Assembly: GCA_027366525.1 (NCBI GenBank)
Contig: DAHXKG010000003.1
Coordinates: 5,453 to 69,452, forward strand
Reading direction: 5' to 3'
Length of the DNA stretch: 64,000 bases
Origin: a candidate division FCPU426 bacterium
Lineage (GTDB): Bacteria > Oederibacteriota > Muellerivitia > Muellerivitales > DAHXKG01
Below, one piece after another: positions 5,350 through 14,230 of this stretch (position 1 is the stretch's first letter; each line of letters opens with the position of its first letter). The notes under the pieces are model-generated. The model searched no databases and was not told the DNA's origin. It worked only from the letters and a program-made list of their open reading frames with translations. Both the position numbers and the translations under genes were made by a program.

Positions 5350-8300
5350 ATGTTAGCAAGATATTCTTTGAAAATTCTTATCTTTAGTTTAATCATTCAC
5401 ATTTTCTTGGGAATTTTTTCGCTGGTATTAGCCCAATGCACACCTGCAACCGCCCAAATCTGTGTAGCAGTGGATGATTATGCAGAAGTTTATATTAATG
5501 GCGTTTTTTTAGGTCAAGTAAATTACTGTAATTGGAATGGTGCCGGAACTTGTCCACCAGGTTGCTTGAGTGTCCCTGTCTCTTTATTAACCAATCCTAT
5601 TTGTATTGCCATTGAAGATCAGAACACCGCACCAGAAGTTACTTACGCTTCATGGGATTTAGATATTACTTGTAGTAGTGGGTTGCATTCAGAAATTACA
5701 TCCTCTGATGGAAATTATCAAGGTTATTACATTTCCACTGGAAATCCAGCACCTACCCCAGGCCCTGACTCGAGTGGGAATCCTTGGTACTCTCCCAATT
5801 ATAATGGAAGTGGCGTCTTTACATTACCTCCTGTAACTGTAGTCAATGGAGATACTTGGGGACAACCCATTTTTAACCCAGTCACTGGACAACAAATCCC
5901 ATTTATTGCTAACAACAATACTGGAGACTATGGAGATAGTGTTGGTGCTGTTTTCTGGAGGCAATGTGGTGTGACTATCCCAACCCCTCAACCTACGATA
6001 GGACCTGCAACTTTCACAATCACCAAAACATTGGATGGACCCGTAACTGCCAATGGATGTGGAACAAATGATTTTTGTGTAACATTTACGATTGTTGCTT
6101 GCAACACTGGAGGCGCCATTAATACTCCTGTAACCATTATGGATAATCTCATTACGCCTGCAGGATTTCAATTCGTAAATTGGGGCTATGATGGAACTTA
6201 TCCTTACAATAGCCCTCCTAATGGAGAAGCACCCGTACCAAATTCAAACATGATTTATTTTCCAACAGGACTCGGAAATGGATGTGTAACTTTGCAAGCT
6301 GTAGAAGAAAATTATTATTGGCCAAACAATCAGTGTCAACAAGAAGTAGATGAAGCCTCACTTAGTTATGGAGGAAGTGTTAGTATTTCTTCCGCTCCAA
6401 TTACCGTAAATATCCCTTGTTTTACCCCCACTCCTACCTGGACTCCTACTTTCACTCCCACTTGGACTCCTACCTGGACCCCTACTTGGACCCCCACTTT
6501 CACTCCTACCTGGACTCCTACGTGGACTCCCTCTCCAACACCAACTCAATCAACTCCTACTTTTACTCCCACTCCAACTTTTACACCAACTAAAACGCCT
6601 ACGCCTACAAATACTTTTACTCCAACAAAGACTTTAACGCCAACTAATACCTTTACACCCACTCAAACACCTACGCAGACTTCCACTCCGACACCCACTA
6701 ATACGTTTACTTCTACTAGTACTTTTACTCCAACCCAAACCCCCACCTCAACTTTTACTCCCACTCCGACCCCTACGCATACTCCCACCTCGACACCCAC
6801 TAGTACACCTACTCCAACCGCTACGAACACGCCTATCCCATCCGCAACATCAACTAATACCCCCACCAATACTCCTACACCGACGCATACTTTCACCCCT
6901 ACCAACACTTCCACTCCCACTCCCACTAATAGCCCAACCGCTACTCCTACTCAAACTCCAACCTCTACACCTACTTCAACACCCACTAACACATCTACCC
7001 CAACTGCTACTAATACACCTGTCCCATCCGCAACATCAACCAATACCCCCACTAATACTCCTACACCGACACATACTTTCACTCCTACCAACACCCCTAC
7101 TCCCACTCCCACCAATAGTCCAACCGCTACGCCTACTCAAACTTTTACACCTACTCAAACTCCAACCTTTACGCCTACCTCAACACCCACTAACACATCT
7201 ACCCCAACTGCTACTAATACGCCTGTCCCATCCGCAACGCCCACTAATACCCCTACCGATACTCCCACAGCAACTCATACCTTCACCCCTACCAACACCC
7301 CTACTCCTACTCCCACCAATAGTCCAACCGCTACTCCTACTCAAACTTTTACACCCACTCAAACTCCAACCTTTACGCCTACGCAAACTGTGACTAGTAC
7401 ACCAACCAACACAATTACAAATACACCCACCTTCACACCTACTTTTACTCCAACTTCAACAACGACAAATACACCTACTTTTACTCCAACTTTCACATCA
7501 ACTTATACACCTACCGTGACCAATACCCCAACCAATACCCCAACTGCCACTTTCACCAGTACTCCCACTTCGACACCAACTCCCGTTGTTACCGTTGTCC
7601 TGAAAAAGAATGCTTCAAACGCTAATCCATCGTCTGGAGATCAAGAAACGTATACCATTCAAGCAAACATATTTAATAACTCTGCCAAAAATATTGTTGT
7701 CTGGGATACTATTCCCACGGGCTTAACTTATGCCGGTGGTATAACACCCAACGGACAAGTCATTCCCCTACCAACGCCAGGTTCTTCTTCAACAGGTACA
7801 TTACTTGTTTGGAATTTAGGCTCCGAATCTCCAGGATCTTATACCTTCAGTTATCGTGCAACCGTTAATCAATTGATTTTAGGGGGGACGGTAATTACCA
7901 ACTGGGTTGCCTGGCAGGATTTAGAAGAACCTACTCCACTATTAGCTCAAGCTCCCATTACCATTACGGGTGCCTATACCATTAAAATTGGCATTTACAA
8001 CGAATCCGGTGAAGAAGTTAAACAAATTTTAGAAACCCAACTTTCTCAACCACTGGATACCATAAATTTAGAAGTCTCTTCTAATATTACGACGGTGAAT
8101 GGAACCGTGACGATTTACTATCAAGGGGTGAATTTAGGAACATGGAACGGAACTAATACGCAAGGACAGCTCGTGACAAATGGCCAATATTATGTGAAAG
8201 TTGACAATATTGATCCCGAAGGAGCTGTAACTTCCGTCACTAAAGCTATCACGGTTGATCGCGCTCTTCAAACTATTACCGTTTTGGTTTATAACGAGTC

Positions 8301-8892
8301 TGGAGAAGTAGTTCGGCACTTATATGAAACTAATGAAAACTATAGCTCCACTAATAACATTACAGCGGAAACCGTTAGTTCAACGGTCCTCGTTCCTTCT
8401 ACGGCGATGAACTCTCCTCTACTCACCATCCAGTGGATAAACAATTCAGGAGCTGTCATAGGAACAACCACTTGGGATGGCCGAAATGATGCTGGTGAAA
8501 TCGTAACTAATGGAGAATATTTTATAGCGGTAGTCTCAAGTACGGGAACGGGAGCCAATGTTTCACTCACCAAAGAAGTGACCATTAATGGTACTGGAGA
8601 AAACCTGGGTCAGGTCTACGCAGCTCCCAATATCCTTAACCATGGTAACAGCTTACTAAACCTACGAGTCATTCCGCCTGCGGGAGCTGGAAATTGGACC
8701 ATTAGTCGAGTCCGCGTTTATGATGTAAGCGGCGAATTAGTGGACGAATTCGCCGGATCTCCAGGCTCTAATTCGGCCTCTTATAACCTTTCAACATTGG
8801 CGAGCGGACTTTATCTAGTCGTGGTGAATTTGGAAGATGCTCAGGGCCATTTATTAGGTCATCAAATTATTCAAATTGTTATTCAACACTAA
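5350..8892 (+). CDS. Large secreted protein: Cys-rich N-terminal domains, long Pro/Thr linker, DUF11-like domain, FlgD-Ig-like domains, T9SS-CTD-like end
   Basis: Signal peptide; about 390 aa of TPT repeats; WNG../WDGRN..G..V.NG.Y motifs twice; ends [10 protein letters not shown]...IVIQH. Confidence 0.8.
6424..7580 (+). repeat. Coding Pro/Thr low-complexity tract with 12-bp TPTW/TPTF units and three long imperfect tandem copies
   Basis: CCATCCGCAAC recurs at 6838, 7024 and 7228 (periods 186 and 204 bp), each followed by a PSAT.TNTPT...[22 protein letters not shown] unit. Confidence 0.9.
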
Positions 8893-9051: not shown

Positions 9052-9987
9052 TTGATGAAAGAGCATACACATCCACTCCTCAACCACCCCATTGATGTCA
9101 GCAGGGAATTTTCAAATTTAGAAAATACCCTATTTCTACCAAAGCAATTGTTGAATTTTAATCTCAAAACTATGATGGGTCAAATTGACTGGAACAGATA
9201 CGCATATAAAATTCGCACAGCTTTCAATCAAGAAGGATTATCTCTGGTTGAACAATCGTCATGGGAGTTCCCTCCAATTTATGATCCTTATTCTGAATTG
9301 AACTCCTTTAAAATTACCTTTTATGGCAATCGAACCGTGAGAATACAACTACATGGTCGATCTTATCCTCATGCTTCAACCTCTTCGCTTATGTTAGTGA
9401 ATCATTTAAAGCCCTCCCCTCCCTGGCCAGTGAAGCACACTAAAAACCGTATTATCTATCAAAGCTCAGCCGGATCGCTCATTATTCATCAAAAGCCTTG
9501 GAGACTTGAAATCCGGGATGCCTCCCATCAAGTACTTACTCAAACAATCAATCTCGAGGATCACCGAAGTCTGCGCAATACGGATCCCCTTCCTTTTTGT
9601 TTTATTCGACCCACACCTAATTATGCCCGAAAATTCGCCGCTACCTTTCAGCTTCATAATTGTGAAAAAATTTATGGCTGCGGGGAATCATTTACACGTT
9701 TAGACAAACGAGGACAAAAGTTGGTTTTGTTTACCTATGATTGTCATGGGGTTCAACATGATGGGATGTATAAACCCATTCCATTTTTCATGAGTAATCG
9801 AGGCTATGGCATGTTTCTTCATACCACCAGTCCCTCTACTTTTGATTTTGGCTATTCCTATGGCGAAGCAACCACTTTATTTACTGAGGATGAGATTTTG
9901 GATCTCTTTATATTTTTAGGCTCTCCCAAGGAAATTTTATCCGCCTATACTCATTGTACAGGCCGAAGTCCCATGCCACCATTCTGA
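9052..9987 (+). pseudogene. GH31 alpha-xylosidase (YicI-like), 5' fragment
   Basis: EKIYGCGESFTRLDKRGQ, YKPIPFFMSNRGYG, YT..TGRSPMPP, then an abrupt stop at the insert junction. Confidence 0.85.
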
Positions 9988-10132
9988 AAACTCAATTTTA
10001 AACCACATTTCTAAACTATTTGTTCCATCTGTAAAATCCGAATAATCTAAAAGTATCTCATATCCATCTGGAGGTATTGGTATAAATCCAAGATCAATTT
10101 GCTTTGGGCTTTTTTTATTTTTCCAATAACTA

Positions 10133-10198
10133 TTAAGCGCGGATGCGTTTGATGCCCGTTCCAGCCTTTTCAATGAAGCCAACACGATGCAACAGGTC
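10133..10198 (-). pseudogene. Fragment of an AlbA_2/HATPase_c_4 (RecG-C-like) ATP-binding protein
   Basis: Translates DLLHRVGFIEKAGTGIKRIRA*, matching the recalled RNP.IADL.HR.G.IEK.GTG motif. Confidence 0.6.
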
Positions 10199-10210
10199 CC
10201 CGTCGTGGAC
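10196..10210. repeat. 15-bp cassette-boundary repeat, copy 1 (GTCCCCGTCGTGGAC)
   Basis: Identical to copy 2; 14 bp beyond the SnoaL gene stop codon. Confidence 0.9.
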
Positions 10211-10224
10211 GACCGGGAACGGGA

Positions 10225-10596
10225 TTACTTCTGTTCGTTCAAATAGAAAGCTTTTACTTTTTGGGCTTTGTTTTCCGCGTTCAACTCCACCACATCAAGA
10301 ACCTGATTACCGTTATCCCGCCGGTAAAGGACCGCGTAACCGCTGGGCGCGGAAAAAACCTGCTCCAGGGTGAAGTGGATATGAGGCGCCAAGGAAAGTC
10401 CCAAGCGGAAATGCTCGCGCAACTCCGTTAATCCATGAAGTTTTCCATCGGGTTTATGCCAACGCACCACCACCGTGTTGGCCTCAAATTCAATCGTGTC
10501 GGCATAGTGACCCATGATTCGATCCAGGTCATGGGCGTTCCAGGCCTCGATCCAATCCCCAGCGATCGTCCGTAAGTCGGCAATATTTTTGAGCAT
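10225..10596 (-). CDS. SnoaL-like / NTF2-family protein
   Basis: WIEAWNAHDLDRIMGHYADTIEF motif. Confidence 0.85.
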   Translation of the reverse strand: MLKNIADLRTIAGDWIEAWNAHDLDRIMGHYADTIEFEANTVVVRWHKPDGKLHGLTELREHFRLGLSLAPHIHFTLEQVFSAPSGYAVLYRRDNGNQVLDVVELNAENKAQKVKAFYLNEQK

Positions 10597-10641
10597 GATG
10601 AAATTACCTATTCTTATTTCACTTTTTCTTGTCGACTCCGG

Positions 10642-10656
10642 GTCCCCGTCGTGGAC
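10642..10656. repeat. 15-bp cassette-boundary repeat, copy 2 (GTCCCCGTCGTGGAC)
   Basis: 12 bp beyond the methyltransferase stop codon. Confidence 0.9.
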
Positions 10657-10668
10657 AAGTAAGCAATG

Positions 10669-11526
10669 TCAAACCGTCGCCACTAGGAACTCTTCGCCAC
10701 TGAATGGCCTAAAGCCATCCTTCCGATTCGAAAAATACCGCTGGGCCAATTCATCCGACGAGACGTGGCGAGCTTTTTGAAACCCAGCCTCGCGGGCAAG
10801 GGCCGTCATCTCCTCCGGCCTGAAGAAACTAACAAAAGGGGTCCCGGCGGCTTTGGCGCCTGCGACCGCTCGCTCCATCCCCACGCGGATCTCAGAGGCA
10901 ACCATCTCGATTGGAAAGATGAAGGTCATAGCAAGCGTAGAACCAGGAGCCGACTGGGCGATGCGATGCAGAGTATCAAAAACGGCGTCCTTCGTAAGGT
11001 ACATGGAAACTCCCGTGGAGGCTACTACCACTGGGTGGGAGGAATCAAACCCTGCCCCTTGAAGAGCCAGCTTCCAATCCTCCCCAGCCTCAAAGTCCAC
11101 TGGAACAAACTTGAGCGAATCCGGGACACCAAAACCCAGTTCCGCTAGGCGCCGAACTTTCCAGGCTTGTGTACTGGGCTGATCCACTTCGAAGACCTGA
11201 AGCTTCTTGGACATTTCCGGCCTACGTTGGACGAAGCTATCCAAGCCAGCGCCGAGGATCACATACTGACCAACGCCCCTTCCCACCTGATCCACCACTA
11301 AGTCCTCCACAAACCGAGCTCGGGCCACGATGGAGGCCTGGAAATATTTCGTCCATTCGGGATGCATGTCGGGCCGGTCACGCCAGCCCGCTTCGGGTGC
11401 CACCAGTTTCAGACCAATTTCATCCTCGAAAATCGGAGGCTTGTCGTCCACCTGAAGGTGCATTGCCCGCCAAAGAGCGGTTCTAACGGCCGTTTGATCA
11501 GGAATAAGCGGTTGTATGTTTTTCAT
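10669..11526 (-). CDS. Class I SAM-dependent methyltransferase (leucine carboxyl methyltransferase/YktD family)
   Basis: TA...A.WRA, RARFVED, QYVILGAGLDSF, VFEVDQP, FVPVDFE motifs; ATG 11526 after a GGGAG RBS. Confidence 0.9.
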   Translation of the reverse strand: MKNIQPLIPDQTAVRTALWRAMHLQVDDKPPIFEDEIGLKLVAPEAGWRDRPDMHPEWTKYFQASIVARARFVEDLVVDQVGRGVGQYVILGAGLDSFVQRRPEMSKKLQVFEVDQPSTQAWKVRRLAELGFGVPDSLKFVPVDFEAGEDWKLALQGAGFDSSHPVVVASTGVSMYLTKDAVFDTLHRIAQSAPGSTLAMTFIFPIEMVASEIRVGMERAVAGAKAAGTPFVSFFRPEEMTALAREAGFQKARHVSSDELAQRYFSNRKDGFRPFSGEEFLVATV

Positions 11527-11555
11527 GCCCCTATCTCCCACCTACTTTTTTTAGT

Positions 11556-11570
11556 GTCCCCATCGTGGAC
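11556..11570. repeat. 15-bp cassette-boundary repeat, copy 3 (GTCCCCATCGTGGAC)
   Basis: One mismatch to copies 1 and 2; shares the following AAGT with copy 2; 27 bp beyond the HEPN stop codon. Confidence 0.9.
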
Positions 11571-11597
11571 AAGTTTTCGACTACAAGTTGTACGTCT

Positions 11598-12011
11598 TTA
11601 CTTCAAAATATCCTTCGGAAAACTTGTGCGAATCGCCGTTCTTACCTTAACGGCTAAGGCCGTCGTTTCTTCGGCTTCCTGCCGATTCATGGGTTCCCAA
11701 TTCCCCGGATAGCGGCCCATCCAGGCATAACTCGTTAATTTTTCCTGCTCAGCAAGGGTCAATGGAAAACTAAAACCCAAAGGAAAAAGTTTGACGATTT
11801 CCGCGATGTCATGGCTTTTCGGGAAGTCGATCGAGAGGTAGACTAGGCGTGATTTTAAATATTTTTCGATGCATTGTTGGGCCAGGAAACAAACCACATC
11901 GCAGGGGCAATCATCGCCCATTTTTAGGAGGTTTTGAAAAGCCTTATGATCGTTTTCAGCCTTCTCGATCCATTGGCGGACAATCGCAAATTGTTCAGGC
12001 GGCACGCTCAT
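11598..12011 (-). CDS. HEPN domain protein (MNT-HEPN module)
   Basis: W..KAE.D, CFLAQQCIEKYLK, PKSHDI, RYP motifs; overlaps the MNT gene. Confidence 0.9.
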   Translation of the reverse strand: MSVPPEQFAIVRQWIEKAENDHKAFQNLLKMGDDCPCDVVCFLAQQCIEKYLKSRLVYLSIDFPKSHDIAEIVKLFPLGFSFPLTLAEQEKLTSYAWMGRYPGNWEPMNRQEAEETTALAVKVRTAIRTSFPKDILK

Positions 12012-12324
12012 AGAGAACTTTCCCCTCGTGAACAGCCGTCTTGATAATGGTCCCCACGATATCCCTGAACTTTCGGACCTCCTCGGGGGTCACCACAAAA
12101 ACATCCTTTGCCAAACCTATCCCACTCAGGGCAAGGCGCACCTCCACACATTTATCGACATGGCGACCTGCGAAGGGCATAACAACTAAAAGGTCCACGT
12201 CGCTATCCTGGCCGGCCGTCCCCCGGGCATAGGAACCGAAAAGGATGATCTGAACCGGGTTAAATTTTTCGACGATCCGCCGGACCATTTCTTGGATGAT
12301 GTCTTGAGCGCTCACGCTTTGCAT
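11995..12324 (-). CDS. Minimal nucleotidyltransferase (MNT)
   Basis: IILFGSYARG....DSDVDLLVV motif; EGKVLYE ending. Confidence 0.92.
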   Translation of the reverse strand: MQSVSAQDIIQEMVRRIVEKFNPVQIILFGSYARGTAGQDSDVDLLVVMPFAGRHVDKCVEVRLALSGIGLAKDVFVVTPEEVRKFRDIVGTIIKTAVHEGKVLYERAA

Positions 12325-12388
12325 TTAATTCCCTTTATGACTCGAATAGGCAATAACGGCTTCAACGATATCCTTGAACGACATTATA

Positions 12389-13444
12389 CCGGAATTTCCC
12401 AGATGGCATTGTCTGGCAACGTTGACGGGTAACTTGGTGTTCATTATATCGCCCCCCCCCCGCTTTTTCCATCCGATTTTGGGGTCAGGACCCAACCTAG
12501 GCGCCAAGCTTAGTCTCCTCAAGCCTTTGGAGACCCCCAAAGCAACTCCGAAATGGTTTTTTCCTCTCGTGGACAGACACCTATCCCTTTGAGATTTTCA
12601 GACAGCCGACTTTTTGACCCTTCCTAAACTACCCGAGCCCCGGCGCCCGTGGCCTCATGGATCCCAAGTCCCGAATCCGGTCCAGAATTTCGGAGAACAG
12701 TTGCCTGGAAACAGCCACTTCCGCCATCCGGAAGACCACGTACCTAGAATGCCGCACCACGTGGGCCCCGATCTTGATAAGTTTTTCCCGCAAGCTCGTC
12801 ATTGACCAGTGCTTCACGGGTTCCGGCAGTACCAGACGGCGCAGAAAGTTGCCCAGGTTGTAGGCCAGGGTAAAAAGCTGGAGCCGCACTTGGTTGTCCA
12901 CGAAATCATGGCAACTTAGCCGCGTCCACTTGACTGCGTTTTTCCCCTCTTTGATCCACTGCTCGGCTGTGCCTCGCCCGTTGTAGAACTTCACCACCTG
13001 CCGCGCCCAATACCGGAGGTTTGTCACGATGAACCCAACGCGTGGAAAAAGTTCCCCGTTGTGGTGTTCGATCTTCGCCACCACCCGGCGGGGTTTTCCC
13101 CAACTGGCAGCCTGGTACTGGAAGCTGTGATACCGAACCAAGGGTCTGTGGGAAGGGCACCCTACGGGACGGGCCAAAAAAGGCTCGACTTCCCGCTCCA
13201 ACACGTCATTGGAAGCCAAGCGAATGACGTAAGAGTAGCCTTCCTTCTCAAGGAACTCATACAGCTCCGGCCGGGCAAACGCCGCGTCGCCCCGGAAGAA
13301 TCGCTGGATGGGCAGGTCTCGGTAGCGTTCCACGATGGGTTCCAACATCGAACGCCACTGGTCGGCGCTAGCGACGTTTCCATTCCGCAAAAAGGCTCTT
13401 TCCAGGTCGCCGAACTGGTTGAAGCAGAACAAAGGGTGATAGCA
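12389..13444 (-). mobile_element. IS1380-family element, 5'-truncated
   Basis: Transposase 3' half (CYHPLFCFNQFGDLE, RGDAAFA, YNGRGTAEQWIKEGK, REKLIKIGA) ending 12629; CATCTGGGAAATTCCGG at 12405-12389 resembles an IS1380 right terminal repeat. Confidence 0.85.
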
Positions 13445-13448
13445 AGCA

Positions 13449-14210
13449 TTGGGAGGAATGGCGGCATCGCTTCGTGGAGGGCTCTCGCTAGGGCTTTGTG
13501 GATTTTCATTTTGGAGTCACGATATTGGCGGTTTTTCTCATCCTCCCAGTTTAGAACTATATCGGCGGTGGGTGCCATTTGGCATGCTGCTGTCCCATAG
13601 CCGTTGTCATGGAGTTCCTCCGAGAGAGCCTTGGTTTTATGGGCAATCATTTGAAAACGAATTTCGCTTATCCGTTGAATTGCGGTATCGGTTAATGCCT
13701 TATCTTTATGCGCAATCCCTGGATAGTTGTCACCAAGGTCATCCTCTCATGCGACCGCTTTTTTTTGAATATCCAAATGATCTTGTTTCCTGGCTTATTG
13801 AAGATGAATATTTACTCGGTTCAAATTTACTTATTGCACCTCTTTTAGAAATTTCACTCCAGCGTCCGGTTTACCTACCTCCGGGTGAATGGATCGATTA
13901 TCAGTCTTCCGTACAATATTCAGGAGGCCAATGGCATATCATTGAATCTGGAAAAATTCCTTGTATTATTCTCGTAAAAAGCGGAACTGTACTCCCGGAA
14001 ACCTCTGTTGTACCCTCGACACAATTCATCGATTGGTCTCATTTGAACTTAAATCTCTATGGCTCCGAACACGAATTTCAGGGTCTGATTGCGCTTCCCC
14101 ATCGTCCACATCTTCATCCTATTCAAATTCAATGGCACCAAAATCAATGGAAAATTCAAAAAGGACATCTTTCAAACGTCATTTATCACATTCAAAAAGT
14201 AGCTCCCTAG
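13449..14210 (+). pseudogene. GH31 alpha-xylosidase, 3' fragment
   Basis: LRGGLSLG..GFSFWSHDIGGF, ELYRRW, HSRCHG, LRYRLMPYLY, PLMRPLFFEYP motifs. Confidence 0.88.
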
Positions 14211-14230
14211 TTCGATAACTAGGGAGCTAC
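14199..14230. terminator. Intrinsic terminator hairpin between the convergent GH31 and degP genes
   Basis: Perfect 14-bp inverted repeat GTAGCTCCCTAGTT-CGAT-AACTAGGGAGCTAC; T run follows on the minus strand. Confidence 0.85.

Follow-up and report, generated by a model that had tools for sequence, protein, structure and literature searches.

Small gene cassettes bounded by 28-bp palindromic sites, a candidate short serine recombinase, and a probable transferred remnant of such an array in a candidate division FCPU426 bacterium

Introduction

To our knowledge, no well-studied system other than the integron stockpiles single genes in the form of mobile cassettes. Integrons depend on one clade of tyrosine recombinases and on folded attC sites. 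An attC site is an imperfect palindrome of 55–141 nt that is used as a folded single strand and carries R and L boxes (RYYYAAC...GTTRRRY) and extrahelical bases. Here we analyse a 64,000-nt stretch of DNA, called the window throughout, from a candidate division FCPU426 bacterium (GTDB lineage Oederibacteriota; Muellerivitia; Muellerivitales; DAHXKG01; GenBank assembly GCA_027366525.1, contig DAHXKG010000003.1, positions 5,453–69,452 of the forward strand). Three neighbouring gene units of the window are each followed by a copy of a short motif, which is one half of a 28-bp palindromic site that bounds the units of gene arrays in a sister family of the same order. Our interpretation, to which we assign a probability of about 0.6, is that these palindromes are recombination sites bounding small mobile cassettes in the sister-family arrays, that a short serine recombinase serves them, and that the window holds a decayed and transferred piece of such an array.

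The arrays resemble integrons in several respects. They are composed of co-oriented, mostly single-gene units in variable order, with a site directly past the stop codon, and their cargo is rich in toxin-antitoxin and acetyltransferase genes. Many of the arrays lack an adjacent recombinase, as do clusters of attC sites lacking integron integrases (CALIN), and a hybrid site on the platform side is joined to varying cassettes. In contrast to integrons, the site is a near-perfect duplex palindrome of 28 bp, genomes carry many arrays each, and the enzyme linked to the site is a serine recombinase, the gene of which lies on the 3′ side of the array and is transcribed towards it. The original prediction, made from the window alone, had described an integron-like array whose sites are not attC. 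The exclusion of an integron is justified, as the site has neither attC-like length nor attC boxes and an IntI integrase was found in 0 of the 32 genomes of the order.

The modules flanked by pdif (Xer) sites on Acinetobacter plasmids also have 28-bp sites and consist of small toxin-antitoxin or accessory genes, with no recombinase within the module. Their flanking sites alternate in orientation, and they depend on XerC and XerD of the host. Unlike pdif sites, those described here are direct repeats (87 same-strand pairs versus two) and are linked to a serine recombinase; by eye, their sequence also appears unlike the dif consensus.

Large serine recombinases move the staphylococcal cassette chromosome (SCC; CcrA and CcrB) and the elements Tn4451 and Tn5397 (TnpX and TndX). 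SCC elements accrete in tandem at one site, and TnpX and TndX cross over at a GA dinucleotide. CcrB and CcrA are the best named relatives of our candidate enzyme, the catalytic and recombinase domains of which match the integrases of TP901-1 and SPbeta. However, the candidate is half the size of these enzymes and lacks both the zinc ribbon and the coiled coil, its putative sites measure 28 bp and are alike on both partners, and the units are single genes of about 0.8 kb, whereas the elements moved by large serine recombinases span 20–60 kb. Repetitive extragenic palindromes (REP) and bacterial interspersed mosaic elements (BIME), associated with REP-associated tyrosine transposases (RAYT), are similar to our sites in being extragenic, in lying behind stop codons, and in having lineage-specific sequences. 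They differ from the sites described here, which have no RAYT link and no stem covariation, are clustered and co-oriented, and bound units that are exchanged exactly from site to site.

Results

The 28-bp palindromic site

Comparison of 81 copies together with their flanks defined the full element as (T)TGTCCACGACGGG-GA-CCCGTCGTGGACA(A), a 28-bp palindrome in which the central GA is the sole asymmetry. The original prediction had delimited a 15-bp unit, GTCCACGAYGGGGAC, and parsed it as GTCC-N7-GGAC. This parse is wrong, because the 15-mer is half of the palindrome seen in relatives, comprising its left arm and centre. The 28-mer can be read with either a 13-2-13 or an 11-6-11 layout.

A symmetric search, requiring the centre GGGACC and allowing up to seven arm mismatches, identified 112 sites in 323 kb. 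Hardly any variation is seen among them in the centre or in the outer 6 nt of either arm. The inner 4 nt of the arms vary, with the right arm exact in 37 of the 112 sites and the left arm in 65, a difference that is partly due to ascertainment, since the loci were picked by exact left arms. The arms do not covary at the three variable inner positions: Watson-Crick pairs are formed in 66–76 of the 112 sites, and the left arm ignores the variants of the right arm.

Distribution among genomes

The search covered 99 genomes of the phylum, among which the host of the window is the sole member of its own family. A 16-mer probe matched 27 of the 31 genomes of the sister family (f2), with a maximum of 59 copies per genome, and none of 67 genomes from 21 other families of the phylum; the reversed 16-mer, used as a control, gave two matches overall. 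A broader search with an 18-mer, using one genome per species, returned 86 matches, mostly single and in unrelated GC-rich taxa, which were treated as chance. The four assemblies with multiple matches were followed up and contain 54, 39, 23, and 13 exact copies of the 15-mer (reversed control 0), clustered on one strand with spacings of 0.3–3.5 kb. In viral contigs, the 15-mer occurs once per contig among the matches listed, which corresponds to chance level.

Arrays and their cargo

The sites of the sister family are organised into arrays, and they bound the array units. Of the pairs of adjacent sites separated by no more than 4.5 kb, 87 share a strand and two do not. The median length of the 87 units is 840 bp (quartiles 661 and 1475 bp), and they contain one open reading frame (ORF) in 51 cases and two in 20. 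The ORFs are co-oriented with the site in 124 of 142 cases, the median distance from stop codon to site is 20 nt, and the next ORF starts a median of 49 nt beyond the site. Arrays with variable gene order in related genomes, the occurrence of which the original prediction had proposed to check, do exist.

A Pfam search of the 142 cargo ORFs gave matches to 139 families, the most frequent being PIN (nine, plus three PIN_3), GNAT (four), VapB (three), RHH (three), and ParE (two). Several large cassette or flank proteins have no family in NCBIfam or Pfam. Some of the arrays adjoin genes of conjugative or mobilisable elements (TraG/TrwB-like, ArdC, RadC, MobC-like), and others adjoin ordinary genes, for example that of a GH116 hydrolase.

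Other mobile elements occur in the array loci. At L257:8544-10371, the gene of a group II intron reverse transcriptase/maturase starts just past a half-site, the right arm of which has been replaced, and two further copies of the group II intron, found in L262 and L269, match each other at 99.9% identity. One array unit of L260 contains a Y1 transposase gene of the IS200 type (G071:C12:25206-25565), which belongs to a set of nine near-identical copies carried by that genome.

Units change neighbours at the centre of the palindrome

The units change neighbours, and they do so at the palindrome centre. When array loci were compared with one another, 36 of the 68 ends of blocks with at least 80% identity were positioned within 20 nt of a site centre, compared with 1.4% expected by chance. 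The same measure for all blocks of at least 300 nt gave 42 of 124 ends, against the same expectation. A unit of 1020 bp is 100% identical, from site to site, in G002 and G001, which are different assemblies from different genera, and has different neighbours in each. Additionally, a 923-bp unit is 99.9% identical on two contigs of G001, and three genomes share a two-gene unit at about 83% identity, which extends from site to site every time.

The same left flank was found joined to different right arms and right flanks, and vice versa. The variants of the right arm go with the downstream flank, and therefore the exchange point lies in the palindrome centre.

A short serine recombinase is coupled to a hybrid site

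Ten genome loci contain a gene for a serine recombinase of 275–281 aa, either whole or as a 3′ fragment. At nine of them a site follows the gene, in eight cases within 35 nt of the stop codon. At the ninth locus the site is 424 nt away, and a site with a variant centre lies directly past the stop. The sites are convergent with the recombinase gene, and the array extends beyond them, beginning with a different cassette every time. In six loci from three genomes, the recombinase side contributes one common arm (TGTTCCTTTTGG or a close variant), which connects via the centre with the canonical arm, and the six hybrid sites border six different cassettes. A second subgroup of the recombinase has its own arm, (T/C)GTCCCCT..GG. 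The recombinase gene is thus physically coupled to a hybrid site. One metagenome contig contains the arm of the second subgroup on both sides of the centre and no cassette, and looks like an empty platform. Four metagenome contigs encode the short form; three of them have a site 12–113 nt past the stop codon, and the fourth ends within a partial site.

In contrast to the short form, full-length serine recombinase relatives in the phylum have any site or half-site at one of 18 loci, and more distant homologues in metagenomes at four of 75, where the homologues inspected have longer reading frames. Exact sites number 4–59 (median 38) in the seven genomes that contain the short gene, complete or fragmentary, compared with a median of three in the other 24, these genomes being relatives and not independent.

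In L261, where the recombinase gene (12078–12905; G071:C17) encodes 275 aa, a 13-nt palindrome, TCAGTAGTACTGA, is located between the stop codon and the half-site (12906–12920), and a similar palindrome, ATCAGTGGTACTGAT, comes after the right arm at two other sites (L259:7199 and L261:15366); an accessory element or a terminator may be represented here.

The short recombinase contains a resolvase catalytic domain (PF00239, E 2e-22), with the active-site motif YVRVSSKEQ invariant in five copies, followed by a recombinase domain (PF07508, E 1.5e-10, model positions 5–99 of 102), the region of which matches residues 148–264 of SPbeta integrase. Its relatives of solved structure are the catalytic domain of TP901-1 integrase and SPbeta integrase. 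The nearest named families, CcrB and CcrA, match over its 270 residues with scores far below their cut-offs. The short proteins stop at residues 275–281, just ahead of the CxxC zinc-ribbon cysteines of the 509-aa relatives, and have no zinc ribbon or coiled coil. The dN/dS ratio among five copies is 0.08–0.16, which indicates purifying selection. We considered that the short form might be a large recombinase cut in two by the array, and rejected this because of the purifying selection and because C-terminal halves are absent from the vicinity of the arrays.

The host of the window encodes a single serine recombinase, a full-length protein of 509 aa (G000:C28:212555-213337, L281) that is 52% identical to the short recombinase over residues 10–270 and is not accompanied by a site. 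The prediction of a remnant whose recombinase is missing is supported.

Site copies and units in the window

The 15-mer with up to two mismatches matches the window exactly three times, on the minus strand at 10196–10210, 10642–10656, and 11556–11570, compared with 0.11 matches expected by chance, and none of 100 shuffles reached three. The host genome (2.02 Mb, 33 contigs) contains no other exact copy (reversed control 0). Both the three copies and the lack of a full copy in the host backbone had been noted in the original prediction, which was also accurate in its distances: the 15-mers lie 27, 12, and 14 nt past the stop codons of the ORFs for the HEPN protein, the methyltransferase, and the SnoaL protein, an ATG follows copy 1 after 29 nt and copy 2 after 45 nt, and the copies are spaced 914 and 446 bp apart. 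A 15-mer with one mismatch is present outside the window (G000:C31:5995-6009), where about 0.3 such matches are expected by chance.

All three copies, considered as 28-bp sites, are on the minus strand. Copy 1 (11544–11571) is composed of a left arm and centre (TGTCCACGATGGGGAC) without a right arm and was assigned to detector class Lhalf. Copy 2 (10630–10657, class FULL) is a complete 28-mer, TGTCCACGACGGGGACCCGGAGTCGACA, with three mismatches in the right arm, one of them at a position where 107 of the 112 related sites have G. Copy 3 (10184–10211, Lhalf) has a left arm with C in place of the first T, the centre GGGGACC, and no right arm, and a gene fragment follows it directly. The suggestion that the window copies fold into mini-hairpins did not hold, as their stability is like that of shuffled sequence (z −0.9, −0.4, and −0.2). 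A search of Rfam with window positions 9800–13500, accepting E values up to 1, gave no match.

Unit 1, the first in the direction of transcription, provides a breakpoint of its own. It is 95% identical to G070:C49 from the end of the adjoining insertion sequence (IS) to ...TTGTCCACGATGGG (ending GATGGG), and the two are unrelated from the next base. The identity ends just past ...CACGATGGG at site copy 1, which places one breakpoint at the palindrome centre, in partners that have no right arm.

The identities proposed for the three units were confirmed by Pfam, and all of their genes are encoded on the minus strand. Unit 1 contains the gene of an MNT-type nucleotidyltransferase (11995–12324, 109 aa; NTP_transf_2, E 2.5e-13) and a HEPN-domain gene that overlaps its stop codon (11598–12011, 137 aa; HEPN, E 6.4e-20). 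The second unit encodes an S-adenosylmethionine-dependent methyltransferase of the LCM family (10669–11541, 290 aa from a GTG, with an ATG at 11526; LCM, E 2.1e-49), and the third a SnoaL_2 protein (10225–10596, 123 aa; SnoaL_2, E 3.1e-10). In related genomes, homologues of MNT-HEPN (70–95% identity), of the methyltransferase (65–68%, in about 15 genomes), and of the SnoaL protein (69%) are located in separate places, and the homologue search found the three units together nowhere else. The gene order is therefore not fixed among homologous loci, an outcome that the original prediction had made a test of its proposal.

A foreign insert splits the GH31 gene of the host

The units belong to a foreign insert of 3.3 kb (10133–13448) with 53% GC, compared with 39% in the rest of the window. 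It interrupts a glycoside hydrolase family 31 (GH31) gene on the plus strand, the N-terminal part of which is at 9052–9987 (311 aa; Gal_mutarotas_2) and the C-terminal part at 13449–14210 (253 aa; Glyco_hydro_31_2nd positions 239–327 of 328, and Glyco_hydro_31_3rd). Orthologues in 20 related genomes have unbroken frames of about 770–800 aa, and thus about 210 residues of the catalytic domain have been lost. The insert took the place of about 630 bp of the gene, which, judged from these frames, is a pseudogene. Neither end of the insert coincides with a site or an IS end. Since both flanks belong to one GH31 gene, a chimeric assembly is argued against. The array loci of the sister family have 46–51% GC, near that of the insert, and this similarity, together with the distribution of the sites, makes it most likely that the insert was acquired horizontally from a donor of the sister-family type.

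The insert ends on one side with a 20-codon fragment and stop codon (10133–10195, minus strand), which is weakly like an internal part of HATPase_c_4 (PF13749 positions 47–65 of 89, E 0.0087, below cut-off); a DNA search of the order with this 63-nt fragment found nothing apart from the window itself. On the other side there is a 5′-truncated element of the IS1380 family (12388–13448, minus strand), with a transposase ORF at 12629–13432 and a right terminal inverted repeat at about 12388–12410. It retains the C-terminal 267 residues of the transposase (DDE_Tnp_1_4 model positions 173–433 of 435). Alignment with a complete IS at L261:5950-7662 (75–85% identity, terminal repeat included) positions its right end at about 12388. 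That complete element and another at L270:2051-3764 are 99.7% identical, in genomes of different genera. In the window, nine consecutive G (about 12452–12460, minus strand) occur in the IS fragment, within its 3′ non-coding portion.

Three further features of the window were recorded. A perfect 14-nt inverted repeat with a 4-nt loop (14199–14230), between the 3′ end of the GH31 gene and a convergent HtrA-like gene, is probably a terminator. An ORF of 1180 aa on the plus strand (5350–8892) contains a very long Thr/Pro repeat block of the TPTPT type. The GC skew is strongly negative across positions 6300–7600.

Discussion

We regard the sister-family arrays as a real and apparently undescribed cassette system, the enzyme of which we infer. 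In the titles and abstract openings consulted, neither the site nor a cassette array that depends on a serine recombinase is described, and four site strings had no match in the text searched. A more specific proposal is that a whole family of uncultured bacteria has an integron analogue with a chemistry of its own, in which the serine recombinase of about 280 aa, limited to the catalytic and recombinase domains of large serine recombinases and provided with its own platform half-site, captures and releases cassettes through the 28-bp GA palindromes, giving rise to many arrays in each genome and to the transfer of cassettes between genera. We put this forward tentatively, with a chance somewhat short of even. 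The array in the window is most likely an inert fossil, because the host is without the short recombinase and two of the three sites are halves.

In the mechanism that we envisage, dimers of the short recombinase would bind the two 13-bp half-sites of a palindrome, two such sites would synapse, and both strands would be cut at the central GA. The non-palindromic GA overlap would set the polarity of the joining. Recombination between direct sites would release a circle with one site, and such a circle could enter any other site. By comparison with large serine recombinases, an enzyme without a zinc ribbon should need only the inner half-site, which fits the 13-bp arms, and without a coiled coil the reaction should not be directional.

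Several observations weigh against our interpretation. The first concerns the units of the window itself. The original prediction had treated all three as cassettes; a full site, however, lies beside an MNT-HEPN, methyltransferase, or SnoaL homologue at 0 of 19 loci of relatives. The methyltransferase and SnoaL genes, whose homologues are found in site-free contexts, are not typical cassettes in the sampled relatives. Furthermore, 33 of the 112 sites overlap an ORF by at least 20 nt, as determined with a naive ORF caller, and the conservation of the left arm is inflated by the choice of loci. All genomes are metagenome bins, in which duplicates within one bin may be strain variants, although such variants would still show alternative neighbours at the sites. 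In a check of low-depth Logan contigs from three soil runs of one study (0.05–0.20 of sampled words), one contig joins two sites 7445 bp apart, which have 20 shared letters, and contigs diverge into unrelated sequence at four sites; both may reflect other strains rather than excision, and at this depth no junction of a circle was seen. The evidence for the enzyme also has exceptions: one locus with a full-length copy of the short recombinase gene (G058:C9) has no site and only a 12-nt arm-like stretch, and several copies of the gene are 5′-truncated.

The remaining difficulties are also arguments for an alternative that we consider unlikely and nevertheless weigh in full, namely that the site is a REP-like extragenic palindrome with a function for the host, such as RNA stabilisation or protein binding. 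Reshuffling of the units would then be due to recombination, either homologous or illegitimate, or to breaks in the palindrome centre, and the short serine recombinase would come from an integrative element for which the repeats are no more than attachment sites. The canonical site, though not the window copies, forms a strong DNA hairpin (−15.6 kcal/mol, z −5.5), as a REP-like element may; the position of the sites just past stop codons and the tens of copies per genome are also as expected of such repeats. Five site-rich genomes (G047, G050, G053, G056, and G070, with 11–30 exact sites and 89–99% completeness) contain no serine-recombinase catalytic domain at all. The recombinase gene faces the array from its 3′ side, an arrangement unlike that of an integron platform, and its neighbours include genes for ArdC, RadC, and toxin-antitoxin systems; the recombinase module of L261 as a whole lies between two direct sites. 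From this placement and these neighbours, the short enzyme may act as integrase for an integrative element whose targets are the sites.

Against a REP-like origin stands the lack of compensatory change in the stem, as described above. The copies, 13–59 exact ones per genome, are extragenic, as would suit REP sequences, and clustered in co-oriented arrays, which would not. Whole units have been exchanged exactly from site to site, one of them remaining 100% identical across genera. Some of the junctions involve partners without a common right arm, which homologous recombination could not produce. The sites also have no RAYT-type link: 0 of 10 loci of Y1 transposases have a site within 1.5 kb, and no Y1 domain was found in G074, which has the most sites of all (59). 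Moreover, the recombinase would act on the site even if the repeats had a REP-like origin.

The original prediction itself assigned the motif to a tyrosine recombinase, integron-like or Xer-like, or to an HUH enzyme, encoded elsewhere and using the repeats as core sites. The 11-6-11 reading of the 28-mer corresponds to the layout of dif-type sites, every genome encodes 4–14 tyrosine recombinases, and one of these is located about 1.1 kb from a lone site (G001:C26). However, none of the 32 genomes exceeds the 265-bit cut-off for an integron integrase (NCBIfam TIGR02249), the best score being 84.5 bits. A search of 30 tyrosine-recombinase loci from a set of five site-rich genomes found no site within 1.5 kb of any, the Y1 loci are equally devoid of sites, and the short serine recombinase is the sole recombinase linked to the site. 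The central GA as the only asymmetry would also fit the 2-bp crossover of serine recombinases better than a spacer of 6–8 bp. We therefore regard a tyrosine or HUH enzyme as improbable. That the repeats are alternative right ends of the neighbouring IS1380-family transposase, mobilised in a one-ended, ISEcp1-like manner, can be dismissed: an IS fragment does lie upstream on the same strand, and a 14-nt look-alike of the motif, GTCCACGAGAGGAA, is present 54 nt past the transposase stop codon, but this look-alike (12561–12575) is inside the IS, the true right end of which maps to about 12388 with a terminal repeat (...catctgggaaattccgg) unrelated to the motif, and arrays of the motif occur in many loci without an IS.

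We group the arrays with gene-cassette arrays moved by site-specific recombination, among which they would deserve a new class if the link to the enzyme holds. Their cargo consists mostly of toxin-antitoxin, acetyltransferase, and unknown genes. If our interpretation is correct, a very small serine recombinase with a simple 28-bp site might become a tool for genome engineering, and a pool of mobile genes that tools based on attC miss would be exposed. The arrays would then represent a second, independent solution to the stockpiling of single genes, and cassette platforms would have arisen more than once.

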